The notes below the pieces were generated by a model that made no database searches, was not told the origin of the DNA, and saw only the letters and a list, made by a program, of their open reading frames with translations. This document shows positions 19,770 to 62,829 of a DNA stretch of 64,000 nt, piece by piece; the first letter of the stretch is position 1, and each line of letters starts with the position of its first letter. Both the position numbers and the translations under genes were made by a program. Source of the stretch: an uncultured Gammaproteobacteria bacterium (lineage in GTDB: Bacteria; Patescibacteriota; Microgenomatia; 2-02-FULL-39-11); assembly GCA_964544585.1 (NCBI GenBank), contig CAZJBV010000002.1:67468-131467 (forward strand). Reading direction: 5' to 3'.

Positions 19770-21073
19770 AGGATATAGATATTCTTTGGTTCATCGAACA
19801 TATTGCCCGTGAGTTGGATGTAGCAGTCTTAGCAAGCTTAATTATCAACAAAAAATACGGCCTGACAGTAAAAATAGAACAGATATCAAATCTTAAGAAA
19901 ATAGAAAAGCTTTACAATCCCAAAATTATTCTCCTTCCTTATTGTTATGTTGCCACCGATGGTTATATAGAAAGAATAATTTCGATATGGCCAAAGAGTG
20001 TCTTTATCAATCTTGCTTGGGAGCAAATTTTTTATAATGCCAACAAAATATATAAATTGCCCCGCGACTATTTTGCTCGAAATTGCGTTTATCACCATGC
20101 CTGGAGCAAAACCAGAAAAAAAATACTTAAAAAGCTCGATATTCCAGACAAAAATATTTTTCTAAATGGCCAACCCGCCTATAAATTATATGATGAGCCA
20201 TACAAAAAACTTTTTATCAGTCGTAAAAATCTGGCAGAAAGATATCAATTAGATACTAACAAAACATGGATTTTCTTTCCCGAAAACTACAGTTGGTATT
20301 TCTATTCAAAAGAAACAATCCAAAAGATCATCCAGGATGGTCAAGGAGTAAAAACCATCAGCACTCTAAAAAATTATTGCAAAGACAGCTTTACAATTGC
20401 ACTTGAATGGTTAAACCAGATCGCAAAAAGATATGAAGATACTGTTGAAATCATCCTTCGTCCGCGTCCCTCATTTAGCCAAGAATATTTTTTATGGCAA
20501 GTACAGAAATTAAAACCGTCTCTATCCAAAAATATAAGAGTTATAAAAGATTTTTCCATCAGAGAATGGATTTTAGCAAGCGATATCGTAATTTCATCAT
20601 TTTCAACTTCACTTATCGAAGCCGCCATAGCTAAAAAAACTCTTTATATACTTGAACCTAATCCCATGCCAAATGAATTAATTGCAGAGTGGTATAAATA
20701 TGTCGAGAAAATAAAAAGTCTGAATGGATTATTCTCTATCCTGCCGGCCAGCCTGCCGGTAGGCATGGCAGGCAGGAATAATTACTTAAAGCTTCGTACC
20801 TGGGCACGGTCTAATTTTTATGTAAAAGATGATCCCATCCAAGGACTTGCGGATATTCTTGCAAAAATACCAGAAAAACAACTTCCAGAATTAAAAAATA
20901 CAAAAAGTCTATTCCGTCAAGCACAGAAAAAGGCATTCTCAATATTAAGTAAATTAAAAAAAGCAACAACAACCACGGATGCATATTTTAAATTAGATGA
21001 TGATAAAATCTTTGAGTCAGAATTAAAAGATAAAATGATTCGTTATAAAAACTTTATTGATAAATATCTATGA
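19766..21073 (+). CDS. hypothetical surface-carbohydrate biosynthesis protein (GT-B-like; candidate nonulosonate/ulosonate transferase)
   Basis: 435 aa. The 'IVISSFSTSLIEAAIAKK' region resembles the C-terminal domain of TagF/KpsC-type GT-B transferases. Carries an in-frame GC-rich palindrome at 20741-20776. Confidence 0.5.
   Translation: MKDIDILWFIEHIARELDVAVLASLIINKKYGLTVKIEQISNLKKIEKLYNPKIILLPYCYVATDGYIERIISIWPKSVFINLAWEQIFYNANKIYKLPRDYFARNCVYHHAWSKTRKKILKKLDIPDKNIFLNGQPAYKLYDEPYKKLFISRKNLAERYQLDTNKTWIFFPENYSWYFYSKETIQKIIQDGQGVKTISTLKNYCKDSFTIALEWLNQIAKRYEDTVEIILRPRPSFSQEYFLWQVQKLKPSLSKNIRVIKDFSIREWILASDIVISSFSTSLIEAAIAKKTLYILEPNPMPNELIAEWYKYVEKIKSLNGLFSILPASLPVGMAGRNNYLKLRTWARSNFYVKDDPIQGLADILAKIPEKQLPELKNTKSLFRQAQKKAFSILSKLKKATTTTDAYFKLDDDKIFESELKDKMIRYKNFIDKYL
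20741..20776. repeat. GC-rich palindromic element A1 (core CCTGCCGG..CAGGCAGG), in-frame in hypothetical CDS
   Basis: ctgccggccagcctgccggtaggcatggcaggcagg; encodes 'PASLPVGMAGRN'. Confidence 0.75.
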
Positions 21074-21915
21074 TTATAATGCGCATAACAGGAGGATTAG
21101 GCAATCAACTTTTTCAGTATGCCACAGGAAGGACCCTTTCGGAAAAGTTTAATACTACCTTAAAGCTTGATATCACTGAAGTATTGACCAAAAAATATCG
21201 AAAATTCTTATTAGATCGCTTTCGCATAAAAGCTCAAACCGCTTCTCCAGAAGTAGTAAAAAAATTCTGGAGATTCTCAGTTCACAATCTTTTCCGATCT
21301 CCCGAATATAAAGTATTCAAAGAAAAACACTTTCATTACGACCACGAATTTGAAAAAATAAAAGACAATACTTACATCGTAGGTTTTTTTCAGAGCGATA
21401 AATACTTCAACAATATCAAGCAGTTAATTAAAAGAGAATTCTCTCTCAAAAATGGGTTATCGACAGAAAGCAAAAAAATTGCTGCAAAAATAAAGTCAGT
21501 AAATGCCGTCTCTATAAATGTTAGAAGAGGAGATTATGTCAGTGATCCTATTATTCATAAGCGCCACGGATTTATAGGAGTAGACTATTTTTTGAAAGCC
21601 ATTAACTATATTAAAAAAAATACTTCCAATCCTCACTTTTTTTTATTTTCAGATGACATACAGTGGGTAAAAGAAAATCTTCATATCCCGCATCAATCGA
21701 CATACGTCGACCTAAACTTCCCAGATCATGTCGAAGAAAATCTTATTCTCGGTAGCCTTTGTAATCATAATATCATTACCAACAGCACCTTTAGTTGGTG
21801 GGTGGGCTGGTTAAATGCAAATAAAAAAAAGATCGTCGTCGCCCCTAAAAAATGGTTCAAAGATTTGGATGTTTCGACAAAAGATTTATTTCCAAAATCT
21901 TGGATTCTTCTTTAA
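21070..21915 (+). CDS. alpha-1,2-fucosyltransferase (GT11)
   Basis: 'ITGGLGNQLFQYA', 'NVRRGDY' and 'ITNSTFSWW' are the three GT11 signatures (FutC-like). Confidence 0.85.
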   Translation: MIIMRITGGLGNQLFQYATGRTLSEKFNTTLKLDITEVLTKKYRKFLLDRFRIKAQTASPEVVKKFWRFSVHNLFRSPEYKVFKEKHFHYDHEFEKIKDNTYIVGFFQSDKYFNNIKQLIKREFSLKNGLSTESKKIAAKIKSVNAVSINVRRGDYVSDPIIHKRHGFIGVDYFLKAINYIKKNTSNPHFFLFSDDIQWVKENLHIPHQSTYVDLNFPDHVEENLILGSLCNHNIITNSTFSWWVGWLNANKKKIVVAPKKWFKDLDVSTKDLFPKSWILL

Positions 21916-28146: not shown

Positions 28147-29026
28147 TCTAAAAATAACAGTTCATATGATAGTCAAAAATGAAGATAGATTCATTTGGTA
28201 TGCGATTAAGTCAGTCTTAGATTATATTGATAAATTATTGATATTTGATACAGGAAGTAAAGATAATACAGTTGAAATAATAAAAAATATAAATTCCCCC
28301 AAAATAGATTTCGAACAAAAAGGCAATGTAAATTCAAAAAAATTAGTAGAATTACGCCAAGAGCAGATAGAAAAGACTAAAACAGACTGGATTTGGATAG
28401 TCGATGGAGATGAAATCTATCCAGATGTAACCATAAAAGAGATATTAAAATATATAAACCAAAATCGCCATATAGGCGGAATCGTCAGGCGCTTCGATCT
28501 ACTCGGGGATATTTATCATTATCAGGATGAAAGCGTAGGTAGTTACCATCTTTTAGGCATGACAGGACATCTCGTACTTCGATGTCTAAACATTAAAAAA
28601 ATTGACGGCCTTCATCTCAAAGGTCTTTACCCAAACGAAGGCTATTATGACAGAAATGACCAAGTACTCATTGATTACCCCCGCAAAGATTTCTTTTTTA
28701 CCAGAAATAGATTATTTCATGCCATGTATTTAGAGAGATCAAGTCTAGGTAGAAATTTATTACAGACGTTACACAGAAGAAAATATAAAATAGAGGAAGG
28801 CAATTATTTTTCCGCAACCGAGGAATTCCCCAATATTTTTTTCCAAAAACATCCCCAACTTGTTTCAGATGTGACGGCAACCCGTGATGTCCGCTACGAT
28901 ATTGCCGCAAAACTAATTACTCCGATAAAAAAACTAAAACGAAATATCTTTAATACACCTGGAAGGTGGCCGGATGCCTGCCTGCCGGCAAGGCAGGGAC
29001 TCCTTCCAGGTGGAAAAAATAAATGA
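28139..29026 (+). CDS. GT2-like glycosyltransferase whose C-terminal tail is encoded by a GC-rich palindromic element
   Basis: 'VHMIVKNEDRFI' and 'DTGSKDNT' in the N-terminal part. The last ~20 codons ('GRWPDACLPARQGLLPGGKNK') are encoded by repeat 28956-29013. Confidence 0.6.
   Translation: MANLKITVHMIVKNEDRFIWYAIKSVLDYIDKLLIFDTGSKDNTVEIIKNINSPKIDFEQKGNVNSKKLVELRQEQIEKTKTDWIWIVDGDEIYPDVTIKEILKYINQNRHIGGIVRRFDLLGDIYHYQDESVGSYHLLGMTGHLVLRCLNIKKIDGLHLKGLYPNEGYYDRNDQVLIDYPRKDFFFTRNRLFHAMYLERSSLGRNLLQTLHRRKYKIEEGNYFSATEEFPNIFFQKHPQLVSDVTATRDVRYDIAAKLITPIKKLKRNIFNTPGRWPDACLPARQGLLPGGKNK
28956..29013. repeat. GC-rich nested palindromic element A2 (outer arms CACCTGGAAGG/CCTTCCAGGTG, inner core CCTGCCTGCCGGCAAGGCAGG), forming the 3' end of a GT2 gene
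   Basis: cacctggaaggtggccggatgcctgcctgccggcaaggcagggactccttccaggtgg. It shares 'gaaggtggccgg' and 'gggactccttc.aggtg' with C1. Confidence 0.85.
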
Positions 29027-40469: not shown

Positions 40470-41854
40470 AGAAATATTATCTAAGTCTTATTCTTCTAAT
40501 CGCTCTTATATTGCGTCTTATAAATCTCAACCAATCTCTCTGGCTTGATGAAGCTGCCCAAGCCCTCGAGTCCGCCCGCCCTCTTTCCCAACAGCTCAAT
40601 ATCGTTGCCGATTTTCATCCGCCGCTCTATCATATTTTTCTTCATTTTTGGATGCTGGGAGGCAAAAGTGAAATTTGGTTGCGCACCCCCTCAGTTTTAT
40701 TCGGAATAGGCGCTATCTTTCTCTTAATCAAAATAGGTAGATTACTCGGGCATGAAAAAGCATCACTATTGGGAGGACTTTTTTTTGCCATATCGCCATT
40801 TGCCATTTGGTACTCACAAGAAATCCGCCCCTATATATTTTTTACTTTCTTTTCTCTCCTATCAACATATTTTCTCTTAAAAAAGAACTGGTCATGGTAT
40901 ACCGCGACTTCAGTTTTAACAATATATTCCAATTACTTCGCCCCCTTTTTATTCCTTTCACAAATACTGTATGTCTTATTTTTCGACAAAAAAAATATAA
41001 AGATTCTTTTGGCTTTACTCATCATTATTGGTTTGGCCTTTTTACCATGGTTTCCCTTTTTTCTCGATCAACTTAAAGTTGGAACGGCAGGAGTATTCCG
41101 CGGCTGGAGCCAAATTGTTTCTGTTGAGGCAATAAAAGTTATTCCTCTCACACTGGCCAAATTCATCTTTGGCAGAGGAACAATTGACAATCAGCTATTA
41201 TACGCCCTCATTCTCTCCCCAATCCTAATAATATTTTTATATTCAGTCATTATCCTTGGAAAGGAAAAAAGTAATTGGAAACTCTTTTTTTTCTTTTTTA
41301 TTCCTCTCTTATCTGTCACTTTCATAACAGCAATCATACCCATTGCCGCCCCCCAGCGTCTCCTCTTTATCTCACCTTATTTTCTCCTTATTATTGCCGC
41401 ATCGATCGAGAAATTACCACCAAAAGAAAAATATTTTTGTATTTTATTAGTAGTTGCAGTTTCCCTTGCTGGATTGTGGCAGTATTATACCGATGAAAAA
41501 GTCCAAAGAGAAAAATGGAGAGAGGCAGTTCTCTATATTGAAAAATCGACGCCAAAAGACAGCGTAGCTCTATTTATTTTTCCCACACCATTTGCCCCAT
41601 GGCAGTGGTACAACCGGAATATCATTACAGGAAAAGGAATAGCACCTGCTTTTATAGTCAGGGACGAAGATCTTATAAATCTGGAAAAGGAAATATTTGA
41701 TAAAAAAGGAATTTTCCTTTTCCAATACTTAAGCGGACTGACCGATCCTGAAGGCAAAACCCTGGCCAAATTAAACGATTTAGGATATAAACAATCTGAT
41801 ATTAAAAACTTTGCCGGAGTAGGGTTTATATACGTTTTGGAAAAGCCTTTATGA
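40466..41854 (+). CDS. GT39/GT83-like GT-C glycosyltransferase (ArnT/PMT family)
   Basis: 'LWLDEAAQALESA' first-loop DE motif; multi-TM with a C-terminal soluble domain. Confidence 0.75.
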   Translation: MKKYYLSLILLIALILRLINLNQSLWLDEAAQALESARPLSQQLNIVADFHPPLYHIFLHFWMLGGKSEIWLRTPSVLFGIGAIFLLIKIGRLLGHEKASLLGGLFFAISPFAIWYSQEIRPYIFFTFFSLLSTYFLLKKNWSWYTATSVLTIYSNYFAPFLFLSQILYVLFFDKKNIKILLALLIIIGLAFLPWFPFFLDQLKVGTAGVFRGWSQIVSVEAIKVIPLTLAKFIFGRGTIDNQLLYALILSPILIIFLYSVIILGKEKSNWKLFFFFFIPLLSVTFITAIIPIAAPQRLLFISPYFLLIIAASIEKLPPKEKYFCILLVVAVSLAGLWQYYTDEKVQREKWREAVLYIEKSTPKDSVALFIFPTPFAPWQWYNRNIITGKGIAPAFIVRDEDLINLEKEIFDKKGIFLFQYLSGLTDPEGKTLAKLNDLGYKQSDIKNFAGVGFIYVLEKPL

Positions 41855-42981
41855 TTAAAGTCGCCATAGACATAACACAAATAATTCACAAAGGTACAGG
41901 TGTGGCAAACTATGTCAGAAACCTATGCATCCACCTAGCCAAAAATAGAGACATATCTCTCGTACTCTTTGGTTATTCTTACTCAAAATTTAACGAGCTT
42001 CTAAATTTTACAAACGATATAAAAAGAATAAACCAAACTGTTGAAGTAAAACTATTTAAAATTCCAGAAAGATTTTTCAATATTTTATGGAATACACTAC
42101 ACATTATCGCGGTCGAAAGATTGATAGGTCCAGTGGATATCATCCATACCTCAGACTGGATAGAACCTCCCTCCCATGCTCCCAAAGTTACTACAATTCA
42201 TGATCTCATCATATACAAATATTCAGATACATCCCATCCATATATCATCAAAACACAATCCAAAAAGCTGGCATGGGTAAAAAAAGAGACAGAAACGATC
42301 TTTGCTGACTCAGAAACAACGAAAAAGGACATAGTTGATCTTTTAAAAATATCTTCAGAGAAAATAAAAGTAGTCTATCCTGGTCTTGATAAAGATATTT
42401 ATCCTCGTGGAAACCATATTATAGTCGGAGTCGAAAAAAGATATAAAATAAGAGGAGATTATATTCTCTCTGTAGGTACTCAGGAACCACGCAAAAACTT
42501 AAAAGCCGCCATCGATGCTTTTACTTTATATCAACAGCATCCTCTTGTCCAAATAAAAAAACCCCCAGTCGAGCTCATTATTATCGGCAAGTATGGCTGG
42601 GGAGAAGGAGCATACGTTCCGCCCGGAGTCAGAAATATTGGTTTTATAGAAACCAGAGAATTATCAGCGCTCTATAGCGGATCTTTAATGCTGGTTTACA
42701 CCTCTCTTTATGAAGGATTCGGATTTCCCGCTCTTGAAGCAATGAAATGTGGCTGTCCGGTAATTTTATCAGATAGGGGGAGTCTAGCCGAAATAGGAAA
42801 AAATGCGGCAATATTGGTCAACCCCCACGACGTCCGTGAAATAGCAAGACAGATGGTCACGCTGACAGTCAATAAAAAACAGAGAGATCAATGGAGGGAA
42901 AAGGGATTAAAAAATGCCGAAAAATACAAATGGGAAAGCGCGATTGATAAAATAATCTCTCACTATAAGAAAATTGCATGA
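41851..42981 (+). CDS. GT4 glycosyltransferase
   Basis: 'YEGFGFPALEAMKCGCPVILS'. Confidence 0.8.
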   Translation: MIKVAIDITQIIHKGTGVANYVRNLCIHLAKNRDISLVLFGYSYSKFNELLNFTNDIKRINQTVEVKLFKIPERFFNILWNTLHIIAVERLIGPVDIIHTSDWIEPPSHAPKVTTIHDLIIYKYSDTSHPYIIKTQSKKLAWVKKETETIFADSETTKKDIVDLLKISSEKIKVVYPGLDKDIYPRGNHIIVGVEKRYKIRGDYILSVGTQEPRKNLKAAIDAFTLYQQHPLVQIKKPPVELIIIGKYGWGEGAYVPPGVRNIGFIETRELSALYSGSLMLVYTSLYEGFGFPALEAMKCGCPVILSDRGSLAEIGKNAAILVNPHDVREIARQMVTLTVNKKQRDQWREKGLKNAEKYKWESAIDKIISHYKKIA

Positions 42982-44282
42982 ACAAAAAGGATACCCTTTT
43001 TTTAATCACCGCATGCCTTCTGACCTTAGTCATTTTCTTCAAAGCCCTTTCCAACTTTTTCTTCATGGACGATTTCGTCAATATGTATATCGGCTGGGTC
43101 CAAAATTGGGACGACCTCAGAACCATGCTCTTCTCATTTCAAACTTATCCTTACACCGCCTATCGTCCCATACCTTATTTTCTCTACGGATATATAATCA
43201 TCAATATTTTTCATCTCAATCCCATCATTACTCATCTTGCCATGTTTTCACTTCATATATTTAATGCCTATCTTGTCTATAAATTATCAAAATCTATTAT
43301 TACTGCACTCATTTACTCAACCGCGGCTATTCACTTCGGTTCTCTCTATTGGTGGAGCGGACATTATGTCACAGTAGGCACTACCTTTTTCCTCCTCTCA
43401 ATTCTTACTTATCCTAAATGGAAAACGTTACTACTATATGTCCCAATGCTTCTCTCAAATGAAAGTCTACTTTTGATACCAATTATTTATTTATTTATTT
43501 CTAAACTTCAAAAAAAGCACCCACCATACAAATTATTATCGTTAATGATTATAATGAGTCTTGCTTCGTTTATTTTTCGCCTTCGCATCAGTAAATTTGG
43601 CCAACTACCCGATTATGCCATTGGAAACATCACTCAAATAATTCAAACAATCCGTTGGTACTTTTTACGCTTGACTAACCTTCCAGAGGCAGTCCAAAGT
43701 ATGCCCACCGCCGAAAGAAATGTTTTATATACAATAGTCGCCATGTTCATTATCACTTTAGTTATCCTCGTCTTTAAATTCTGGAAAAAAATAATAAAAA
43801 ACTCTTCAATTCATCTCGGATCAATCATTTTTATTACTACCGCATCAGCCTTTTTCCTTCTTCCCAAACATCTTTCCAGTTATTATTTAAATACAGGTTT
43901 TGTCGGTGCTGGCCTAATTTTGGGGACAATCATTAGTTTCGGATTTTCCTCACAAAAATTTCAACTCAAAGCCATTTCCCTCATATCCATAATCACATTT
44001 CTCACCGGATCATTTATAAGCGTCCAATATATGAGTAAAACATCGCCTCTTGTCTGGCGCGGGGAAATTGCACGCAACTATATAGAAAAAGTAAGATCGG
44101 CCCATCCGGTTATTCTCAAAAATGCAACCATTATTTTTCAAAACACCAAAGTCCCTCTTGGAGAATTAAGTATTACCCTATACCATGATAAAGCACTCCG
44201 TTTATATTACAATGATAAGACAATAAAAGTATTGTATGGAAAGAAGTCCAAAGATAAAAATTTATTCGTTATTCAAGATTAA
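42978..44282 (+). CDS. GT-C-like membrane protein (third paralog of the FxxDDF/YRP family)
   Basis: 'FFFMDDFV' and 'AYRPIP'. Confidence 0.55.
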   Translation: MNKKDTLFLITACLLTLVIFFKALSNFFFMDDFVNMYIGWVQNWDDLRTMLFSFQTYPYTAYRPIPYFLYGYIIINIFHLNPIITHLAMFSLHIFNAYLVYKLSKSIITALIYSTAAIHFGSLYWWSGHYVTVGTTFFLLSILTYPKWKTLLLYVPMLLSNESLLLIPIIYLFISKLQKKHPPYKLLSLMIIMSLASFIFRLRISKFGQLPDYAIGNITQIIQTIRWYFLRLTNLPEAVQSMPTAERNVLYTIVAMFIITLVILVFKFWKKIIKNSSIHLGSIIFITTASAFFLLPKHLSSYYLNTGFVGAGLILGTIISFGFSSQKFQLKAISLISIITFLTGSFISVQYMSKTSPLVWRGEIARNYIEKVRSAHPVILKNATIIFQNTKVPLGELSITLYHDKALRLYYNDKTIKVLYGKKSKDKNLFVIQD

Positions 44283-44296
44283 ATTCATAATTCATA

Positions 44297-44317
44297 CCTG
44301 CCTGACCGGCAGGCAGG
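44297..44317. repeat. GC-rich palindromic element A3 (core only), intergenic, flanked by TTCATAATTCATA direct repeats; possible terminator hairpin
   Basis: cctgcctgaccggcaggcagg, lying between ...attcataattcata and cttcataattcataattc, 15 bp after the stop of the upstream CDS. Confidence 0.75.
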
Positions 44318-44341
44318 CTTCATAATTCATAATTCAATTTT

Positions 44342-45421
44342 ATGCACATAGGCATAGATGGCTACGAAATAAATGCCCACAAATTGGTGGGCGTTGGAGT
44401 CTGGGGGCTAGAAATAATAAAAAAACTATATTGGTTAGATGATCAAAACAGTTATATTATCTATCTGCCATCTTCTCCTCAAAATCTTCCCCCGGAAAGA
44501 ATAAATTGGAAATATCGAATTATTCCCTCTCTCGGATTCTGGACATTTACATCCTTACCATTTGGCATTTGGTCAGGCAAAAAACTTAACGTTTTTTTTA
44601 GCCCCACTCATTACATTCCCAGATTTGTAAATATTCCACGCGTCGTATCTATAATGGATCTGTCTTATCTACACTATCCAGAGATGTTTCTTCCCAAAGA
44701 TTTGTATCAGCTGAAAAACTGGACAGACTATTCAATCAAAAATTCTCAAAAGATAATTACCATTAGCCAGTTTACTAAATCTGAAATAGTAAAATACTAT
44801 AGCGTTTCCCCTGATAAAATTGTTGTTGTTTACCCAGGCTTAAATGAAATTTATCTGAAAAAAAATACCGAAAAACCAATTATTCCAGGCAATTATTTAC
44901 TCTTCATCGGCACCATCCAACCCAGAAAGAATATTGAAAGACTCATTGATGCATTTGCACAAGGCCCCGCCAGGCAGAATTCGAAATTGGTCATTGTAGG
45001 CAAAAAAGGCTGGCTTTATCAAAGCATCTTTGCCAAAGTAAAGAAACTCAATCTTGAAAACAAGGTCCAATTCTTAGACTATATCCCCGAGACTGACATG
45101 CCCAACATTTATCAAAATGCTAAAGCCTTTATCCTACAGAGCTTCTATGAGGGTTTTGGTATTCCTGTAGTTGAAGCTATGGCTTCTGGCATTCCCACAA
45201 TTATTTCAAATACTTCTAGTCTTCCCGAAGTCGGAGGCAAAGCAAGTATTTATGTGGATCCAGACAGTGTAGACTCAATAAAAAATGGTATTATTAAAGC
45301 TCTAACTTTAAAAGACTTCGAAAGAAAAAAACTTATTCAAGCTGGCTTTGCCCAAATCAAAAAATTCTCCTATCGCAAAAGCGCCGAAATTGTACTCAAA
45401 ACCCTAAAAGATATAAAATAA
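44342..45421 (+). CDS. GT4 glycosyltransferase
   Basis: 'FYEGFGIPVVEAMASGIPTI'. Confidence 0.85.
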   Translation: MHIGIDGYEINAHKLVGVGVWGLEIIKKLYWLDDQNSYIIYLPSSPQNLPPERINWKYRIIPSLGFWTFTSLPFGIWSGKKLNVFFSPTHYIPRFVNIPRVVSIMDLSYLHYPEMFLPKDLYQLKNWTDYSIKNSQKIITISQFTKSEIVKYYSVSPDKIVVVYPGLNEIYLKKNTEKPIIPGNYLLFIGTIQPRKNIERLIDAFAQGPARQNSKLVIVGKKGWLYQSIFAKVKKLNLENKVQFLDYIPETDMPNIYQNAKAFILQSFYEGFGIPVVEAMASGIPTIISNTSSLPEVGGKASIYVDPDSVDSIKNGIIKALTLKDFERKKLIQAGFAQIKKFSYRKSAEIVLKTLKDIK

Positions 45422-45440
45422 CAAAGGAGGGCGAATCCGA

Positions 45441-45477
45441 CACCTCCGAGGTGTGCGCATGCACTCCTCGGACGGTG
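45441..45477. repeat. GC-rich palindromic element B1 (CACCTCCGAGGTGTGCGCATGCACTCCTCGGACGGTG), intergenic/5' of the acetyltransferase
   Basis: Near-identical to B2 at 51244-51283, with about 33/37 positions matching. Confidence 0.85.
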
Positions 45478-45491
45478 TTGCATTAAGATCT

Positions 45492-46088
45492 ATGTTTAAA
45501 GACAAAGATGGTCGGAGTCTAAGCGTCCATGAGGCTAGCGTCAAGGGCGTAAATAGATTATTCAATATAATTCTCGATTTTGAACTCATGCTTCTTAGAT
45601 GGGTAGGGCATTTTCCCATCCATTTCATCCGCCGCTTTTTTTATCGACTCGCTGGTATAAAAATAGGCAACGGCTCCACTATCCACATGTGGGCAAACTT
45701 TTTCTATCCCCCAAACATCACAATTGGAGATGACACCACTATTGGTGACCACGCCTTTCTAGACGGGCGCGCCCCATTAACTATCGGCAATCACGTCGAT
45801 ATCGCCTCCCAAGTATTAATTTATAACTCTGAGCACGATATAAATGATCCTACATTCAAAGCTATAGTGCAAAATGTAGTCATAGAAGACTATGTATTTA
45901 TTGGTCCCCGCTCAATCATTCTTCCCGGTGTCACTATCGGCAAAGGTGCAATTATTGGCGCCGGAGCCGTAGTAACCGGTGACATTGACCCATTCACGGT
46001 AGTTGGTGGAGTTCCAGCAAAACCTATAACCAAACGCACTCTTCAAAACCCATCTTACCGCATTGGCCGCGCCCGACTCTTTCAATGA
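45492..46088 (+). CDS. left-handed beta-helix (hexapeptide repeat) sugar O-acetyltransferase (WcaF/WbbJ-like)
   Basis: Repeated 'IGD...IG' hexapeptide units ('ITIGDDTTIGDHAFLDG', 'VTIGKGAIIGAGAVVTG'). The ORF extends upstream to 45453 through GC-rich repeat B1, so the ATG at 45492 is the preferred start. Confidence 0.7.
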   Translation: MFKDKDGRSLSVHEASVKGVNRLFNIILDFELMLLRWVGHFPIHFIRRFFYRLAGIKIGNGSTIHMWANFFYPPNITIGDDTTIGDHAFLDGRAPLTIGNHVDIASQVLIYNSEHDINDPTFKAIVQNVVIEDYVFIGPRSIILPGVTIGKGAIIGAGAVVTGDIDPFTVVGGVPAKPITKRTLQNPSYRIGRARLFQ

Positions 46089-46987
46089 AACTCTCCATTA
46101 TTATTGTCAGTTTCAATACCAAAGATCTTTTAAAAGATTGCCTTAACTCAATTTCCCAAAAAACGTCAAAAGAATTTTTAAAAAAAATTGAGATAATGGT
46201 CGTAGACAACTCTTCCACCGATGGATCAGTCGAAATGCTAAAAAAAGAATATCCAACAGTATTAATCATCGAAAATAGAGAAAACCTGGGATTTTCTAAG
46301 GCAAATAATATTGCTATAAGAAAATCAAAAGGGGATTACATTCTCCTTCTTAATAGTGATACGCTTTGCAAAAAAAATACCCTGGAAAAAACTTTAAACT
46401 ATATTGAAACTCGTCCTGAAGTTGGCGTTCTCGGTTGTCGCCTCAAAAATAAAGATGGCTCCATTCAATATTCGGCAGGATATCTTCCAAATATTATCAA
46501 TCTATCTCTGTGGATGAAATTTATTGACGACGTTCCAGTTCTCAATAAATTTCTATTTCCCTACCACATAAATTTTCCAGATTTTTATAAAAAGTCTTCA
46601 GATGTAGGCTGGGTGAGCGGCGCATTTTTTTTAGTCAGGAAAAAATTATTTACAGTAGTAGGTTTATTTGACGAAAACCTTTTCATGTATGGTGAGGAAG
46701 TAGAGTATTGCCTACGCATAGCTAAAAGTGGTTGGAAAGCTAATTTTTTTAGTGAGACAGAAATAATACACCTCAAAGGACAGTCCGGAGAAGGGGAAAA
46801 AGCGGGATTATTAGAAGAATTCAAAGCTTTAAAATATATTTGGCATAAGCACTATCCCTCTTGGCAATTCCCACTTCTTATCCTAATTTTAAAATTCGGA
46901 GCTTTATTACGACTCGTTCTCTTTGGTATAATTTTAGGAGACTCCCATAAAAAGGAAATTTATGCGAAAGCTTTTAAGTTGGCTTGA
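46085..46987 (+). CDS. GT2 glycosyltransferase (rhamnosyltransferase/WbbL-like)
   Basis: 'LSIIIVSFNT', 'VVDNSSTDGS', 'ENLGFSKANN' and 'LLLNSDT'. Confidence 0.8.
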   Translation: MKLSIIIVSFNTKDLLKDCLNSISQKTSKEFLKKIEIMVVDNSSTDGSVEMLKKEYPTVLIIENRENLGFSKANNIAIRKSKGDYILLLNSDTLCKKNTLEKTLNYIETRPEVGVLGCRLKNKDGSIQYSAGYLPNIINLSLWMKFIDDVPVLNKFLFPYHINFPDFYKKSSDVGWVSGAFFLVRKKLFTVVGLFDENLFMYGEEVEYCLRIAKSGWKANFFSETEIIHLKGQSGEGEKAGLLEEFKALKYIWHKHYPSWQFPLLILILKFGALLRLVLFGIILGDSHKKEIYAKAFKLA

Positions 46988-49900
46988 CGACAATCTTATT
47001 TCGATACTAGCCGGATTCCTTCTTGTCTTTATTCCTCTATACCCTAAATTGCCTCTATTTGAGGCTCTTCCAGGTTATATAGTCCGAGTCAGACTCGAAG
47101 ACTTCTTTGTTTTTACAACCGCATTTTTATGGCTCATTTGGCTCATAAGAGGCAAAATAAGCCTCGACCAAAATCCGATAATTAAATGGATCGGCATCTA
47201 TCTCGCAATCGGGATTCTCTCGATGGTCTCGGCCATCTTCATCATCCAGACTGTTCCTTTCGAAGCCCTACATATAGGCAAAATGGTCCTCCATTTTCTT
47301 CGCCGCATTGAATATTTTTCCCTTTTTTTTATTTTTTATACCACCATTCGCTCAATGCGACAGGTTAAAATCTATCTTCTACTTCTTATTGCCGTAGTTG
47401 TAGCCGTGACTTTGTACGGTTATGGCCAGAAATACCTCTATTGGCCGGCGTTCTCTACCATGAATCGCGAGTTTTCCAAAGGCTGGGTTCTCTATCTTAC
47501 AGCCCACGCCCGAGTTTTATCTACTTTCGGCGGCCATTATGACTTGGCTGCATTTACCATGATGATATTGATTATTCTCTGGAGTCTATTTCTTGGTGTT
47601 AAAAATCTTCTCTACAAGGCATTAATTTTTCTTATTCTGTCAGGGGCCTTTTGGCTTCTTATACTGACTGCCTCAAGGACTTCATTTTTAGCTTATCTAG
47701 CCGGAATAACCATCATGTGCTTTCTTTGGGCATTTAGACAAGGTTTACGTTGGTCATTCCTTTCCTGGATTGCCATAACTTTCTTAAGTATTTTTATCAT
47801 GCTCTCATTTGGAGATCTTTCCGACCGCTTTATGAAACTTTTAAAACTCGATGAAAGACTGGGAGGTATAAGAACGCTAGTCCTCAACCCTTTCGGAAAA
47901 CCGCCCGATGACCTATCCGCCTTATTTTTGGAAAACAATCCGGCTACAATTGCTGACGTCACCTCCAAAACGGACCAACCACCTTCTCCCGTTAGACCTG
48001 TGGATGTCACAGAGGATATTCCCCTCAAAATCCCATCAGCAAGCGGAATAGTTACAGTTAAAAGGACTTATTCCCAAAATGCCATTATGTATGATCTCTC
48101 CACGGGTATCAGATTCGATGCCCTCTGGCCGCGGGCAATTGCCGGTTTTAAAAGAAATCCCATTTTAGGTAGCGGCTATTCCACCCTTACCAAAGTCCAG
48201 GTAGAGGAATTTACAGAAGCAGAATCTACAGACAATGATTTTCTCCGAAGCTTGGGTGAAACCGGTTTACTTGGCTTTATTGCTTTCTATGGCATACTTA
48301 TTTCCATGCTTGTTGCTATCTGGAAGACATTTACCAAAGTAAAAGATCCAGTTTTTTATAGCTTTATTGTAGGCTTTGCTGGACTCATTATTGGCCTTCT
48401 TGTAAACGCAGCCTATATTGACGTATTTGAAGCCTCAAAAGTGGCTTACGCCTTCTGGGCCCTGGCAGGCATAACTTTTGGCGGCCTCAAAGTTTTAAAA
48501 AAAGATATCCAGAATTCAAATCAAAAACCATACATTCCCGATATCCATCGATTCCAAGTTTCGGCAAAGATAAAAGTTTTAAACTTTATAAAAAGTGACG
48601 TCTTCCGACTCATCCTCCTACTTCTTCTTGCCTTTCTTTTACGCAATTACAAAATAAATATGCCACTTGCCGACTGGCACTCCTGGCGGCAGTCAGATAC
48701 ATCATCTGTCACCCGAGATTTTATTAAAAATGGCATCAATCTTCTTTATCCTACTTATCAAGATTTGTCAAATGTAGCATCAGGGAAAGACAATCTCAAG
48801 GGACTACGTATGGTAGAATTTCCCCTTTACAATGCTTATGCCACATTTATAGACAAAATATTTGTCGGTTGGAATATAGAGTTTTCTGGAAGATTAGCAT
48901 CAGTCTTTGCTTCTCTTTTATCACTTATCTTTTTATTCAAATTCGTCAGGCGCTATTTAGGCAGAACCGGTGCATTTTTTGCCGCCCTTTTCTTTGCCAT
49001 CATCCCTTATAATATTTATTTCTCGCGTGTTATACTTCCGGAACCATTTCTTGTTACCTTATCTCTTGGTTTTCTTTATTATCTTGATCGATTCTTATTC
49101 GATAACGTCAAAATCTTCAAGCGCTTTTTACTCTTGATAATTTCTTTAATATTTTTATCTCTAGCCCTTTTAGTCAAACCATTTGCTATCTTTATGTTTA
49201 TACCCGCAGTCTATCTTTGGTATAGAAAGTATGGTTTTTCAAAGAAATTTTTCCTCGGACTATTGGTTTATTGGCTTATTGCTTTATTGCCTTTATGGTG
49301 GTGGCGTCAATGGATAAGCAATTTTCCTGAAGGCGTCCCTGCCTATGAATGGCTTTTAAACGGCGACGGAATTAGATTTAAAGGAGCATTTTTTCAATGG
49401 CTCTTTGCCGAAAGAATCACCAAACTAATCTTGGGATATTGGGGAGTGTCATTCCTTCTTCTTGGAATCCTCGTTAAATTTCCTAAAGAAACAAACGTAT
49501 TTTACTTTTATCTTTTGGGAATGTTAACTTATATTTCTGTAGTAGCCACAGGCAACGTCCGTCATGATTATTATCAAACATTTATAGTTCCACTCCTTTG
49601 CATTTTTTTGGCAAAGGGAGTAATGTTTCTTCTTTCCCATACAGCCGAAATATTTTCCCAAACCCGCAATTTAATTACCATAATATTAGTTATTGCTTTC
49701 ATGGAAGCATTTGGTTGGTACCAAATCCGCGATTTTTACAATATCAATCATCCCGAAATAGTCGAGGCTGGTCGCACTCTTGATAGGCTTACCCCTCAAA
49801 AAGCTCTTGTCATTGCCCCATACGAAGGAGACACCGCCTTTCTTTATCAGACAGGCAGAAAAGGCTGGCCCATCGTCCAAGACCCAATCGATATCATGGT

Positions 49901-50069
49901 CAAAAAGGGAGCTGACTACTATGTCAGCACCAAATTTGATGACCAGACCCGCGAATTAATATTAGAAGCCCAGAAAAAAACTACCGATAAAAAGCCATAT
50001 AAAATAATTGAATTTACCGACAAATTTGTCATCATCCAGCTTGTTCCAGATAAAGACCTTCCTAAATGA
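46962..50069 (+). CDS. fusion membrane protein: N-terminal O-antigen ligase/polymerase-like (Wzy_C) domain plus C-terminal GT-C (ArnT-like) domain
   Basis: 1035 aa. The 'ASRTSFLAYLAG' region is typical of the Wzy_C/O-antigen ligase family. The C-terminal half has 'DWHSWRQSDTS' and a multi-TM ArnT-like arrangement. Confidence 0.6.
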   Translation: MRKLLSWLDDNLISILAGFLLVFIPLYPKLPLFEALPGYIVRVRLEDFFVFTTAFLWLIWLIRGKISLDQNPIIKWIGIYLAIGILSMVSAIFIIQTVPFEALHIGKMVLHFLRRIEYFSLFFIFYTTIRSMRQVKIYLLLLIAVVVAVTLYGYGQKYLYWPAFSTMNREFSKGWVLYLTAHARVLSTFGGHYDLAAFTMMILIILWSLFLGVKNLLYKALIFLILSGAFWLLILTASRTSFLAYLAGITIMCFLWAFRQGLRWSFLSWIAITFLSIFIMLSFGDLSDRFMKLLKLDERLGGIRTLVLNPFGKPPDDLSALFLENNPATIADVTSKTDQPPSPVRPVDVTEDIPLKIPSASGIVTVKRTYSQNAIMYDLSTGIRFDALWPRAIAGFKRNPILGSGYSTLTKVQVEEFTEAESTDNDFLRSLGETGLLGFIAFYGILISMLVAIWKTFTKVKDPVFYSFIVGFAGLIIGLLVNAAYIDVFEASKVAYAFWALAGITFGGLKVLKKDIQNSNQKPYIPDIHRFQVSAKIKVLNFIKSDVFRLILLLLLAFLLRNYKINMPLADWHSWRQSDTSSVTRDFIKNGINLLYPTYQDLSNVASGKDNLKGLRMVEFPLYNAYATFIDKIFVGWNIEFSGRLASVFASLLSLIFLFKFVRRYLGRTGAFFAALFFAIIPYNIYFSRVILPEPFLVTLSLGFLYYLDRFLFDNVKIFKRFLLLIISLIFLSLALLVKPFAIFMFIPAVYLWYRKYGFSKKFFLGLLVYWLIALLPLWWWRQWISNFPEGVPAYEWLLNGDGIRFKGAFFQWLFAERITKLILGYWGVSFLLLGILVKFPKETNVFYFYLLGMLTYISVVATGNVRHDYYQTFIVPLLCIFLAKGVMFLLSHTAEIFSQTRNLITIILVIAFMEAFGWYQIRDFYNINHPEIVEAGRTLDRLTPQKALVIAPYEGDTAFLYQTGRKGWPIVQDPIDIMVKKGADYYVSTKFDDQTRELILEAQKKTTDKKPYKIIEFTDKFVIIQLVPDKDLPK

Positions 50070-51301
50070 AAATTCTAATGCTCACTCCCTACCTTCCTTA
50101 CCCACTCCTCTCAGGTGGACAAATAAGAACATACAATCTTTTAAAAAATCTTGCCAAAAAGCACGACATCACCCTATTCTCATTTATAAGGCTTGAATCA
50201 GAAAAAAAATATATTCCTGAACTGCTAAAATTTTGCCAAAACGTTAGTACATTTAAACGACGTCCTGCATGGTCACATATAAACATCGCTTTATCTCTCC
50301 TCACCCCATTTCCTTTTTTGGTTTCCATTTATTATTCCCGCACACTACGCCGCGCTATTCAAAAGGAACTTCATAAAAACCATTATCATCTCATCCACTC
50401 CGAAACATTTTATGTCATGCCCAATATTCCTAAAACAACTGTTCCCATCCTTCTTGTGGAACAGACAATTGAATTTCTCGTCTACCAGCATTTCGTAGAA
50501 AATATTAAAATTCCTTTAAACCTCCTCTTATCCATCGACGTTGCCAAAATTCGCTTTTGGGAAAAATATTACTGGCGAAAAGCTGATAAAGTTGTGGCCA
50601 TGTCCAAAGCCGATGCCGACGTCATGGAAAAATTATCTCCTCACTTAGACGTCGATATCGTCCCCAATGGAGTCGACACCGATGAGTTTTTTAAAATCCA
50701 AAAGAAAAAAACGCGGGCTAAAACCATATTATTCGTCGGTAATTTTAAATGGCTACAAAATAAAGAAGCAGTGAAACTTTTAGTTGAAAAGATCTTTTCC
50801 CTGATTCATAAAAAACTACCAGAAGTCAAACTCTGGATAGTAGGCCGGTATCCTCCCTGGGAAATTAAAAAATATGAAAGCGGCAATATAAAAGTTTCAG
50901 ATAATATCGACGACATTAAAATAGCTTATGGTAACTCTGACGTACTTTTGGCCCCCATCTACGGACCGGGTGGCACCCGGTACAAAATTCTCGAGGCCAT
51001 GGCCGCGGGTCTTCCGGTAGTAACTACTACTCGTGGAATAGAAGGTCTCAACGCCAAAGACGGTACAGATGTCTTAGTCCGCGATTCAGTCGAAAGTCTA
51101 GCCAAGGCTACGATTGATGTCCTTATCAAAGAGAATCTTGCAAATAAATTGGCCACAAATGGTAAAAAGCTCATCGCCCAAAATTATGACTGGAAAGAAA
51201 TATCGCAAAAACTTGACAATCTCTACGAAGAAGTCGCCTCAAAACACCTCCGAGGTGTGCGCATGCACTCCTCGGAGGTGGAGGAATCTGGAAAAAGTTG
51301 A
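50066..51301 (+). CDS. GT4 glycosyltransferase with a repeat-encoded C-terminal extension
   Basis: 'GGTRYKILEAMAAGLPVV'. The last ~17 codons ('HLRGVRMHSSEVEESGKS') are encoded by GC-rich repeat B2. Confidence 0.8.
   Translation: MKILMLTPYLPYPLLSGGQIRTYNLLKNLAKKHDITLFSFIRLESEKKYIPELLKFCQNVSTFKRRPAWSHINIALSLLTPFPFLVSIYYSRTLRRAIQKELHKNHYHLIHSETFYVMPNIPKTTVPILLVEQTIEFLVYQHFVENIKIPLNLLLSIDVAKIRFWEKYYWRKADKVVAMSKADADVMEKLSPHLDVDIVPNGVDTDEFFKIQKKKTRAKTILFVGNFKWLQNKEAVKLLVEKIFSLIHKKLPEVKLWIVGRYPPWEIKKYESGNIKVSDNIDDIKIAYGNSDVLLAPIYGPGGTRYKILEAMAAGLPVVTTTRGIEGLNAKDGTDVLVRDSVESLAKATIDVLIKENLANKLATNGKKLIAQNYDWKEISQKLDNLYEEVASKHLRGVRMHSSEVEESGKS
51244..51283. repeat. GC-rich palindromic element B2 (CACCTCCGAGGTGTGCGCATGCACTCCTCGGAGGTGGAGG), forming the 3' end of a GT4 gene
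   Basis: Perfect arms cacctccgagg/cctcggaggtg around gtgtgcgcatgcact; encodes 'HLRGVRMHSSEVEE'. Confidence 0.85.
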
Positions 51302-51311
51302 TTAATTATAT

Positions 51312-52208
51312 ATGAAACTCTCAATCATCATCGTCAATTTTAATTCAGGAAAATATTTAAAAGAATGTTTGGAGTCCATTAAAAAATCTACTCTTTCACC
51401 AAATGACTATGAGGTAACAATCGTTGATAATGATTCGACAGATTCATCTTTAAAACAAGGCCTAAATGTCCAATTTTCATCTCTCCATCTTGTCAAAAAT
51501 GGCAAAAATGTCGGCTTCTCCAAGGCCAACAATCAAGGCATCAAAAAATCAGGTGGTGATTATATCCTCCTTTTAAATCCGGACACTTTACTTCAAAAAA
51601 ACACCTTAAAAATTATGATAGATTACATGGATAATAATCCAAACGTCGGAGTCTCCACTTGTAAATTACTTCTTCCAGATGGTTCATTAGATGACGCCTG
51701 TCACCGAGGTTTTCCTACTCCCTGGAATGCCTTCTGTCATTTTTCCGGAATCTCAAGTTTTTTTCCCAAAAGTAAATTCCTCAATGGTTATCATCTTGGC
51801 TACAGTAATTTAGATAAAATTCATGAAATAGACAGTTGTGTCGGTGCATTTATGCTCATCCGCAAAACAGTCGGTGAATCTCTCGGCTGGCTCGACGAAG
51901 ACTATTTTTGGTACGGAGAGGATATTGATTTTTGCTTTCGGGTAAAAGAAAAAGGCTCCACAGTAATGTTTGTTCCCACTACTTCAATCGTACACCACAA
52001 AGGCATCTCCAGTGGCATCAAAAATCACTCTAAAGATATTTCAACCGCAGACGAAACAACCCGCCTCCGCGCCTCCCACTCCCGCTTCGACGTCATGAGA
52101 ATTTTTTATAAAAAACACTATCAACACAGATACCCATTCTTATTGACAACTCTGGTTCTAAGCGGTATTAGATTAAAGCAACTTGCAAATAAATACGCAA
52201 ATCTATGA
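51312..52208 (+). CDS. GT2 glycosyltransferase (paralog of 46085..46987)
   Basis: 'LSIIIVNFNS', 'VDNDSTDSS', 'KNVGFSKANN' and 'LLLNPDT'. Confidence 0.8.
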   Translation: MKLSIIIVNFNSGKYLKECLESIKKSTLSPNDYEVTIVDNDSTDSSLKQGLNVQFSSLHLVKNGKNVGFSKANNQGIKKSGGDYILLLNPDTLLQKNTLKIMIDYMDNNPNVGVSTCKLLLPDGSLDDACHRGFPTPWNAFCHFSGISSFFPKSKFLNGYHLGYSNLDKIHEIDSCVGAFMLIRKTVGESLGWLDEDYFWYGEDIDFCFRVKEKGSTVMFVPTTSIVHHKGISSGIKNHSKDISTADETTRLRASHSRFDVMRIFYKKHYQHRYPFLLTTLVLSGIRLKQLANKYANL

Positions 52209-61917: not shown

Positions 61918-62829
61918 ATGATCCGAAATGAAAACGAATTTCATACTCCCGTCTTACTCTCACAGGTGATTGTCGGCCTCAATATAAAAAAAGGTGGCCT
62001 TTATATAGATGCCACAATCGGAGGGGGAGGTCACACAAGAGAAATATTGCAACTTGAAGGAAAAGTATTAGGCATTGATCAAGATCCAAACGCCGTTGAA
62101 TATGTAAAAGATCATATTCAAAATCCAAATCTCCTCCTCCAAGTGGGCAATTTTAGAGATATAAAAGAAATTGCCCAAAAATTTGGCTTTAATAAAGTAG
62201 ACGGAATTTTATTTGACCTTGGCATATCGAGCTATCAGTTAGACAAGGGTAGTAAGGGATTTTCCTTTCTCAAAGATGAACCGCTCGATATGCGGATGGA
62301 TAAAAGAAGTTGGCCCGTAACAGCTGAGAAAGTGGTAAATAAATATTCTGTGAGTGAGCTTTATGACATATTTACGTTATTTGCTGAGGAAATCGATTCT
62401 CGGGATGTTTCTAAAAATATTGTTCGCGCCCGTAAAATAAAGCCGATAAAAACCACGGCAGATTTAGTTTCGGCCGCAGGTCTGGATCTAGCTAAGATTG
62501 AAGATATCGGCAAAGCTGCGCGCATTTTTCAAGCAGTGAGAATCGAGGTGAACCAGGAGTTAGAAAATTTAAAAAGGGCTATCCCAGAGGCAACGGCTCT
62601 ATTAGTTAGGGGCGGAAGATTGTTATTTATCAGCTTTCATTCCCTGGAAGATAGAATCATCAAGTTACAAATGAGAAAGGCCATGCCTGCCGGCAGGCAG
62701 GGCCTGCCTGCCGGTAGGCAGGAAAAAATTCAGGAACTGACAAAAAAACCAATAGTTCCAGATGAAAAAGAACAAAGGATAAACCCGAGATCAAGATCGG
62801 CCAAATTAAGAATCTATGAGAAAATATAG
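61918..62829 (+). CDS. rsmH: 16S rRNA (cytosine1402-N4)-methyltransferase RsmH, with an in-frame GC-rich palindromic insertion near the C-terminus
   Basis: 'HTPVLL', 'YIDATIGGGGH', 'FDLGISSYQLD' and 'LDMRMD'. The extra 'AMPAGRQGLPAGRQ' is encoded by repeat 62685-62722. Confidence 0.9.
   Translation: MIRNENEFHTPVLLSQVIVGLNIKKGGLYIDATIGGGGHTREILQLEGKVLGIDQDPNAVEYVKDHIQNPNLLLQVGNFRDIKEIAQKFGFNKVDGILFDLGISSYQLDKGSKGFSFLKDEPLDMRMDKRSWPVTAEKVVNKYSVSELYDIFTLFAEEIDSRDVSKNIVRARKIKPIKTTADLVSAAGLDLAKIEDIGKAARIFQAVRIEVNQELENLKRAIPEATALLVRGGRLLFISFHSLEDRIIKLQMRKAMPAGRQGLPAGRQEKIQELTKKPIVPDEKEQRINPRSRSAKLRIYEKI
62685..62722. repeat. GC-rich palindromic element A4 (tandem double core), in-frame in rsmH
   Basis: gcctgccggcaggcagggcctgcctgccggtaggcagg. 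Confidence 0.8.

Follow-up and report, generated by a model that had tools for sequence, protein, structure and literature searches.

How can one and the same hairpin stand between two genes at one place and be translated as the end of a protein at another? The question is raised by a 64,000-nt stretch of DNA from an uncultured bacterium (contig CAZJBV010000002.1, positions 67,468 to 131,467; this whole stretch is called the window below), which contains two near-identical palindromes, B1 and B2. B1 lies between a GT4 glycosyltransferase gene and an acetyltransferase gene, and B2 lies near the end of another GT4 gene. In our analysis, B1 and B2 are quite probably sister copies of a selfish DNA hairpin that is short and non-autonomous. 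One copy entered a gene junction of 3-4 nt, turning it into the 70-nt GT4/acetyltransferase spacer, and the other entered another GT4 gene a few codons before its stop codon, where translation through the element adds a tail of about 16 amino acids. We infer no host function for either copy. The two elements and the genes around them are as follows (window positions).

45441 to 45477, forward strand: B1, an intergenic 37-nt hairpin (CACCTCCGAGGTG / TGCGCATGCA / CTCCTCGGA-C-GGTG) with one bulged C in the right arm (folding, covariance model R1)
51245 to 51280, forward strand: B2, a 36-nt hairpin translated as HLRGVRMHSSEV in the GT4 tail (alignment, folding, arm pattern)
44342 to 45421, forward strand: GT4 glycosyltransferase 5' of B1 (Pfam Glycos_transf_1 and Glyco_transf_4)
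45422 to 45491, forward strand: 70-nt spacer around B1, from the GT4 stop (45421) to the acetyltransferase ATG (45492); 3-4 nt in the relatives L001 and L004
45453 to 45491, forward strand: spurious 13-codon upstream extension of the acetyltransferase open reading frame (ORF), with a GTG start within B1 (ortholog alignment)
45492 to 46088, forward strand: hexapeptide-repeat acetyltransferase of 198 amino acids from its true start (Pfam Hexapep, ortholog alignment)
50066 to 51301, forward strand: GT4 hosting B2, 411 amino acids against an ortholog median of 395 (Pfam, ortholog alignment)
51245 to 51301, forward strand: C-terminal extension of this GT4, HLRGVRMHSSEV-EESGKS-stop, absent from 119 orthologs

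The two 33-nt segments 45440-45472 and 51244-51276 have 100% identity (ACACCTCCGAGGTGTGCGCATGCACTCCTCGGA), and such a match was found in 0 of 100 shuffles of the window. Immediately 3' of the identical segment, B1 continues with CGGTG and B2 with GGTG, and a gapped alignment leaves one inserted C as the sole difference. The near-identity described in an earlier inspection of the letters alone (the sequence-only reading) is thus real, but its figure of about 4 differences in 37 positions holds for an ungapped count only. B2, which had been placed at 51244-51283, is likewise a real element with a slightly narrower core (51245-51280).

Both elements consist of a left arm (CACCT-CCG-AGGTG), an apical part (TGC-GCAT-GCA) and a right arm (CTCCT-CGG-AGGTG), which fold into a stem of 11 bp and, beyond a T.T mismatch, an apical stem of 4 bp with a GCAU loop. 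The secondary structure prediction proposed earlier gave stable hairpins for both: B1 folds with -33.6 kcal/mol as RNA (z -4.7) and -17.3 kcal/mol as DNA (z -6.5), and B2 with -34.8 kcal/mol (z -6.3) and -19.1 kcal/mol (z -8.0), respectively. With R1, a covariance model made from the 36-nt class of the family described below, B1 scores 46.2 bits (E 1.5e-9) in the forward orientation. The left flank of B1, AGGAG-GGCGAATCCGA, may be a relic of a second arm and loop. An intrinsic (Rho-independent) terminator was also considered and rejected: the terminator scan lists neither B1 nor B2, and their tails (TTGCATTA and GAGGAATC) have no T-run.

At the B1 site, a mechanical ORF runs from 45453 to 46088, in which the GTG inside B1 adds 13 codons (V/M-RMHSSDGVALRS). 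Orthologs of the acetyltransferase in two syntenic relatives, L001 (a groundwater metagenome) and L004 (Logan run SRR33452760), are 197-198 amino acids long and start with MF(H/K)DKDG, which corresponds to the ATG at 45492. Since the orthologs begin at this ATG, the 13 added codons are spurious, and B1 is intergenic and lengthens the ORF artificially, just as had been supposed. The gap between the GT4 and acetyltransferase genes is only 3-4 nt in both relatives, compared with 70 nt in the window. B1 breaks this tight junction, and a loss of translational coupling is a likely local side effect.

At the B2 site, the end of the GT4 protein reads ...EEVASK-HLRGVRMHSSEV-EESGKS*. In the 119 GT4 orthologs compared, 3-10 residues follow the LDxLY motif, versus 24 in the window protein, and the peptide HLRGVRMHSSEV was found in none of the 119. 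The suggestion that B2 creates a C-terminal extension therefore agrees with the orthologs, which end soon after LDxLY and share no such tail. In the DNA alignment of the locus, a block of about 48 nt has no counterpart in L001 and L004, and the empty allele, written in silico, is ...GCCTCAAAA|AAAAGTTGA. The extra tail of about 16 amino acids is probably neutral for the GT4.

Both sites are thus empty in both relatives, whose gene order is the same as that of the window (GT4, hexapeptide acetyltransferase, GT2, Wzy-like, GT4, GT2) and whose GT4 is about 79% identical to that of the window. The flanks of B1 and B2 do not align with each other, and the two GT4 proteins encoded upstream of them are only 23% identical. 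B1 and B2 are therefore discrete elements and not parts of a larger segmental duplication, and they were inserted into this lineage after its split from the nearest sampled relatives. One argument of the sequence-only reading loses its weight, namely that the frame encoding RMHSS is open in both copies, because the element is free of stop codons in nearly every frame. Both elements were also recovered with matching flanks in the assemblies of three runs (SRR12113383, SRR12113419 and SRR12113422).

A side observation concerns short-read contigs from Logan. In three runs, the 3' ends of contigs L134 and L135 and the 5' ends of L136-L138 lie inside the 33-nt core common to B1 and B2. Since contigs assembled with k=31 end within this shared 33-mer, the affected genes, including the GT4 that hosts B2, drop out of exact-protein indexes.

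The window contains further members of the family besides B1 and B2. It has 3 matches to the strict arm pattern, where 0 are expected, model R1 adds B1, and an R1 scan of the 64 kb gave no copies beyond B1, B2 and two elements called E1 and E2. All four have one orientation, co-directional with the genes. The additional features are as follows.

12538 to 12594, forward strand: E1, 57 nt, an in-frame insert of 19 amino acids (HLEGGRLALSAVEGDSFEV) in the variable loop of an SDR oxidoreductase, after NNAGIDAPP
12612 to 12624, forward strand: relic right arm CTCCCCCGAGGTG, encoding DSPEV, from an older element at the SDR loop; common to the orthologs P0124 and P0137
28956 to 29012, forward strand: E2, 57 nt, with an A-type palindrome (CCTGCC..GGCAGG) as its core; GT2 tail TPGRWPDACLPARQGLLPGG

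In an alignment with 47 orthologs, E1 is an exact insert of 19 amino acids in the SDR protein (gene 12259 to 13083). Most orthologs have nothing at this position, and the same region of the PDB homologue 6uh2 is shorter by about 24 residues. E2 makes up the last 20 residues of a GT2 protein, 119 orthologs of which stop directly after ITPIKKLKRKIW. As a separate observation, the SDR loop after NNAGIDAPP appears as a repeated landing or exchange site: besides E1 and the relic arm in the window protein, three orthologs (P0128, P0124 and P0137) carry other family members in the same loop.

In order to find relatives of these elements, one genome per species was scanned with the pattern CACCTNNNAGGTG-N(5-35)-CTCCTNNNAGGTG, and the family counts given from here on are among the matches listed. 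Dozens of low-GC matches come from Gottesman-, Davies-, Curtiss- and Beckwithbacteria, Microgenomates, Berkelbacteria, Saccharibacteria and 'Patescibacteria group', with some Omnitrophota labels, and several single metagenome-assembled genomes (MAGs) hold at least 3-4 strict copies each. High-GC matches (for example in Streptomyces) look like chance or coding matches. The NNN triplets of the arms were left unconstrained in the pattern, so their complementarity is a clean test of pairing. They are fully complementary in 71 of 82 low-GC copies, in which 19 different triplets are used, versus 2 of 49 high-GC matches. In the 36-nt class, double compensatory changes are found at 6 base pairs, 2 of them in the apical stem, and the covariation score was reached by 0 of 500 shuffles; in slid registers, pairing drops to 40-58%. 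Compensatory changes thus keep the hairpin in a multi-copy family, of which B1 and B2 are 36-nt class members with an unusual apical stem-loop.

Unit lengths range from 34 to 61 nt, and the common units have 36 or 57 nt, which equal 12 and 19 codons. Most of the copies (75%; 62 of 83) lie inside ORFs of at least 90 amino acids, usually hundreds of nt from the ends. The intragenic copies run with the ORF in 35 cases and against it in 27, and between them they occupy all six frames; the encoded peptides include HLxGGRMDSxEV, TPxRWPNGLLPG, NTSKVGxDSFEV and STSEESKPTSEV. The remaining copies occupy short gaps that separate an ordinary stop codon from an ordinary start codon. Three PurL-like orthologs (66-67% identical) carry an insert of 12 amino acids at one position (L063 5535-5568, L094 3713-3748 and L039 721-754); these inserts differ in orientation and in element class (34 or 36 nt), suggesting in-place inversion or replacement, or a hot spot. 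Composite and nested copies also occur, namely the A-type core in E2, the relic arm beside E1 and three-arm doublets in other MAGs, and these composites suggest exchange between copies.

Some further matches deserve description in their own right. When the JGI metagenome collection was scanned once with the apical 20-mer, a single B-type match was obtained, L122 (Ga0209542_10319739, about 880-935), with arms CACCC-CCG-AGGTG and CTCCT-CGG-GGGTG, that is, with a compensated change in an otherwise constant part of the stem. In L053 (2710-2850) and in L088 (7560-7680; an Omnitrophota-labelled MAG), copies with longer cores are followed by tandem units of right arm plus tail (...CAGCGGACTCCTCGGAGGTGgcgaagcacggttgaagt...), which may be another arrangement of the family arms. 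Many element-bearing MAGs with 29-43% GC are third-party annotation (TPA) co-assemblies labelled 'uncultured Gammaproteobacteria' (L005, L007, L008, L014, L016, L019, L031-L033, L042, L047, L057, L058, L063, L064, L074, L076, L077, L083, L108 and L113). This label is doubtful, because the PurL-like protein of one such MAG is 66% identical to that of a Patescibacteria MAG and has the insert site in common with it. A phage origin of the family was rejected, since IMG/VR gave only 9 high-GC matches whose triplets are non-complementary, as expected of chance matches.

The element has 67-68% GC, against 36-40% in the window and 36-38% in the genome. Such a GC-rich element in an AT-rich genome contains almost no stop codons, and its common units are whole codons, so that it would be tolerated within genes as an insert in surface loops or tails. 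The hairpin might spread by being copied and pasted, probably as a single-stranded DNA intermediate in hairpin form that would be handled by a trans-acting enzyme encoded elsewhere in the genome. In addition or instead, recombination or gene conversion between the arms common to the copies may be involved, which would also explain the composite and nested elements.

Several results weigh against B1 and B2 as copies of a selfish hairpin. Among the 83 copies, no target-site duplication (TSD) of at least 3 nt was found above the permutation expectation. The tags of repetitive extragenic palindromic (REP) sequences are practically absent from the same copies (of the 83 left flanks, 0 have GTAG and 3 have CGTC, and of the 83 right flanks 1 has CTAC, the complement of GTAG). 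Pfam revealed no transposase, Y1/HUH or other gene for mobility among the 55 ORFs of the window, which are glycan-synthesis and housekeeping genes only. With no TSD of this length, no REP tag and no mobility gene in the window, a simple transposon model fits poorly. The B-type apical loop is rare elsewhere, and for the B subtype only two copies have been demonstrated. That pairing is so strongly maintained could also be due to selection for the structure, and not to selfishness alone. The insertions are "recent" in a relative sense only, the nearest relatives with empty sites having the GT4 identity given above.

The flanks of the 83 copies have some features of their own. Repeats of 2 nt show a weak excess (15 of 83 versus 9.7 expected, p about 0.04), and the flanking bases are biased: A is preferred at -1, C never occurs at +1, and A occupies +2 in 54 of 83 copies. 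No insertion sequence was seen in the window or in the inspected 8-kb loci.

Among the other explanations, gene conversion survives best; the near-identity of B1 and B2, from which the sequence-only reading concluded recent spread or gene conversion, is compatible with either. Two older and different members already present at the B1 and B2 sites would have been homogenised through their 13-nt arms, with no fresh transposition of the B type. This fits the arms common to all members with differing cores, the composite and nested elements (the A-type core in E2; E1 beside a relic arm), and the different element classes and orientations at orthologous SDR and PurL-like sites. GC clusters of yeast mitochondria reportedly merge, shuffle and mediate gene conversion as well (PMC8811140). 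However, the sites are empty in two syntenic relatives, so at least two insertions are needed anyway, and arms of 13 nt are very short as substrates of homologous recombination. We consider such homogenisation unlikely as the origin of the pair, but to be taken seriously.

The arms of the element raise a further idea. The 3'-end heptamer of 16S rRNA is CACCTCC, and its complement GGAGGTG is the Shine-Dalgarno (SD) sequence. The left arms of B1 and B2 (45441-45453 and 51245-51257) correspond to the anti-SD CACCTCC, and their right arms (45464-45477 and 51268-51280) correspond to the SD GGAGGTG. In 57 of 82 low-GC copies the first variable base is C, giving at least CACCTC and GAGGTG. It is conceivable, though rather doubtful, that the family is a radiation-wide and still active hairpin transposon of Patescibacteria that systematically writes inserts of 12-19 residues into enzymes conserved in other respects (GT4, GT2, SDR and PurL-like), that the A-type palindrome may behave alike, and that the SD/anti-SD arms are not a product of chance but reflect an interaction with the ribosome (for example masking of internal SD sites, pausing or hopping). 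If this were true, hairpin insertion would be a major source of loop and tail variation in the proteins of minimal genomes.

The same arms may be read in terms of function. B1 and B2 could be selected RNA hairpins at the ends of operon genes, acting as mRNA stabilisers, processing sites, partial terminators or translational uncouplers, as has been proposed for many REPs. The predicted RNA hairpins are very stable, their pairing is kept by compensatory changes, all four window copies (4 of 4) are co-oriented with transcription and three of them lie at or beside gene 3' ends, and the right arm is SD-like (GGAGGTG) while the left arm mimics the anti-SD (CACCTCC). Against this, a U-tract follows neither B1 nor B2, the SD-like arm is too distant from the next start codon (15-31 nt) to serve it, relatives with the same operon have empty sites, and the copies elsewhere occur in both orientations (35 versus 27) deep within ORFs. 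On balance, selection for an RNA role is improbable.

Still less can be said for a role of the 13-bp arms as sites for a dimeric DNA-binding protein (nucleoid, segregation or restriction-modification) or as a DNA-uptake signal, with the hairpin being incidental. Each arm is itself palindromic (CACCT N3 AGGTG), as a dimer site would be if its spacer were non-specific, and the family is over-represented in one bacterial radiation. However, a free spacer needs no complementary NNN, yet 71 of the 82 low-GC copies have it; the apical stem covaries too, and single arms are uncommon in the window outside the elements. Such a binding or uptake site is very improbable.

Finally, the intragenic copies might not be translated at all, the ribosome bypassing them or the mRNA losing them, as with the byp GC clusters of Magnusiomyces mitochondria and the gap of T4 gene 60. 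Bypassing in T4 gene 60 is aided by SD-like elements and hairpins, and the arms here mimic an SD/anti-SD pair; in a yeast mitochondrion, GC clusters undergo bypassing (PMC8811140). However, the host frame runs on unchanged for hundreds of nt on either side, and the net inserts are whole codons (12 amino acids in the three PurL-like orthologs even with 34-nt cores, and 19 in the SDR). No stop codon ever occurs in the used frame, and a bypassed element would face no such constraints. Intergenic copies were also inspected as possible split genes, and all 9 inspected cases look like ordinary stop/start junctions. Bypass or removal is thus scarcely credible. There is a negligible chance that B1 and B2 are artefactual, owing to a misjoin of the assembly at a repeat or to a segmental duplication of which they would be part: short-read contigs do stop at the shared 33-mer, but the gene order across both junctions agrees with two independent relatives, both flanks of B1 and of B2 came up again in three sequencing runs, and the neighbours and flanks of B1 and B2 are unrelated.

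Returning to the selfish hairpin, known systems offer several comparisons. Rickettsia palindromic elements (RPEs), as summarised in PMC10969869 after Ogata et al. 2000 and 2002, are palindromic repeats of about 100-150 bp that occur between genes and in frame within genes, in Rickettsia only. Judged by that summary, the elements here resemble RPEs as palindromic repeats of a small AT-rich genome that lie between genes and in frame in unrelated genes. They differ in being 3-4 times shorter (34-57 nt, giving 12-19 amino acids), in their Patescibacteria hosts and in a 13-nt arm motif with a covarying triplet. The sequence-only reading had seen an RPE hallmark in one element serving both as coding and as non-coding sequence. 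This behaviour is borne out by the intergenic B1, the B2 and E2 tails, E1 in the middle of a protein and about 80 copies elsewhere, 62 of 83 lying in ORFs; membership in the RPE family is not supported, to judge by length (34-61 nt) and host against the published description.

The GC clusters of yeast and fungal mitochondria are mostly intergenic, with optional in-frame inserts in var1, and their AG/TAG terminal repeats are read as target duplications (PMC8811140). The likeness is broad: short GC-rich hairpins in an AT-rich genome, optional between relatives, with in-frame inserts, variable loops, merging or shuffling and, possibly, gene conversion among copies. Unlike these organellar clusters, the elements here are bacterial, lack AG/TAG repeats and are intragenic in three quarters of cases. 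REPs and their doublets, REPINs, are imperfect palindromes of 20-40 nt with an unpaired GTAG/CGTC tag, mainly extragenic and mobilised by RAYT proteins (PMC3733652). They share with our family short palindromes in multiple copies per genome, oppositely oriented doublets and some intragenic copies, but the elements here have no GTAG/CGTC tag, 75% of copies are intragenic, and no RAYT was found among the 55 window ORFs.

[quoted passage not shown] Like them, the elements here are non-autonomous repeats read through in host ORFs and have terminal inverted repeats (the 13-nt arms, with one mismatch); MITEs, however, usually measure 50-500 bp and have a TSD and an identifiable parent insertion sequence, whereas no TSD of at least 3 nt was found here. 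Tandem interspaced guide RNA (TIGR) arrays, which also occur in bacteria of the candidate phyla radiation (CPR), consist of tandem repeats with non-covarying 9-nt spacers beside a Tas gene (PMC12045711). A TIGR or CRISPR array was rejected, as the elements here are solitary or doublets dispersed in genes, their triplets covary, and Pfam found no Tas or Cas domains in the window ORFs.

Full-text literature on CPR, Patescibacteria and Microgenomates gave no account of such palindromic elements or of the arm sequences, although absence there is no proof of novelty. The family is apparently undescribed. Selfish repeats of this kind, small GC-rich palindromes that colonise coding DNA as well, are already known, and the host radiation is new. 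CPR genomes are usually called streamlined and poor in mobile DNA, a view altered by a mostly intragenic family of 36-57-nt hairpins that is common in Microgenomates and related classes, and the family is proposed as a concrete source of lineage-specific loops and tails in CPR proteins. Together with RPEs in Rickettsia and mitochondrial GC clusters, it makes three independent cases of GC-rich palindromes colonising the coding DNA of reduced AT-rich genomes. In organisms that cannot be cultured, the elements are markers of recent genome change. They also have practical effects, misleading gene callers (the false N-terminal extension at 45453), inflating protein lengths and breaking k=31 short-read assemblies.

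The gene setting is a compact glycan-biosynthesis region. By Pfam, the 55 ORFs of the window include NeuB, a cytidylyltransferase, many GT2 and GT4 proteins, Wzy/PMT-like membrane proteins and FkbM methyltransferases, and RecO, a class II tRNA synthetase, MraZ, RsmH and a penicillin-binding protein (PBP) lie 3' of the glycan genes. The best-named orthologs of the window proteins are from Candidatus Gottesmanbacteria (Microgenomates/CPR). Rfam gave no match at gathering thresholds over the whole window, and no tRNA or tmRNA was found. Nearly all gene junctions are overlaps of 4 nt, of the ATGA type at 41851-52208. Elsewhere, 778 nt without an ORF of at least 80 amino acids (21074-21851) lie amid the otherwise gap-free gene array.

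The only sizeable spacers within 41851-52208 are 44283-44341 and 45422-45491, and both coincide with palindromic elements. The first, of 59 nt and located 5' of the GT4 gene at 44342, is filled by a copy of the A-type palindrome (CCTGCC..GGCAGG, often CCTGCCTGCCGGCAGGCAGG), which was met above as the core of E2. A-type palindromes lie at window positions 20732-20783, 28973-28997, 44297-44321 and 62668-62730; one copy is within the ORF 19766 to 21073, and a double copy is in frame in the RsmH/MraW gene (MPAGRQGLPAGRQ). The A-type family was also seen in other Microgenomates loci (L007, L042, L072, L096, L106 and L121).

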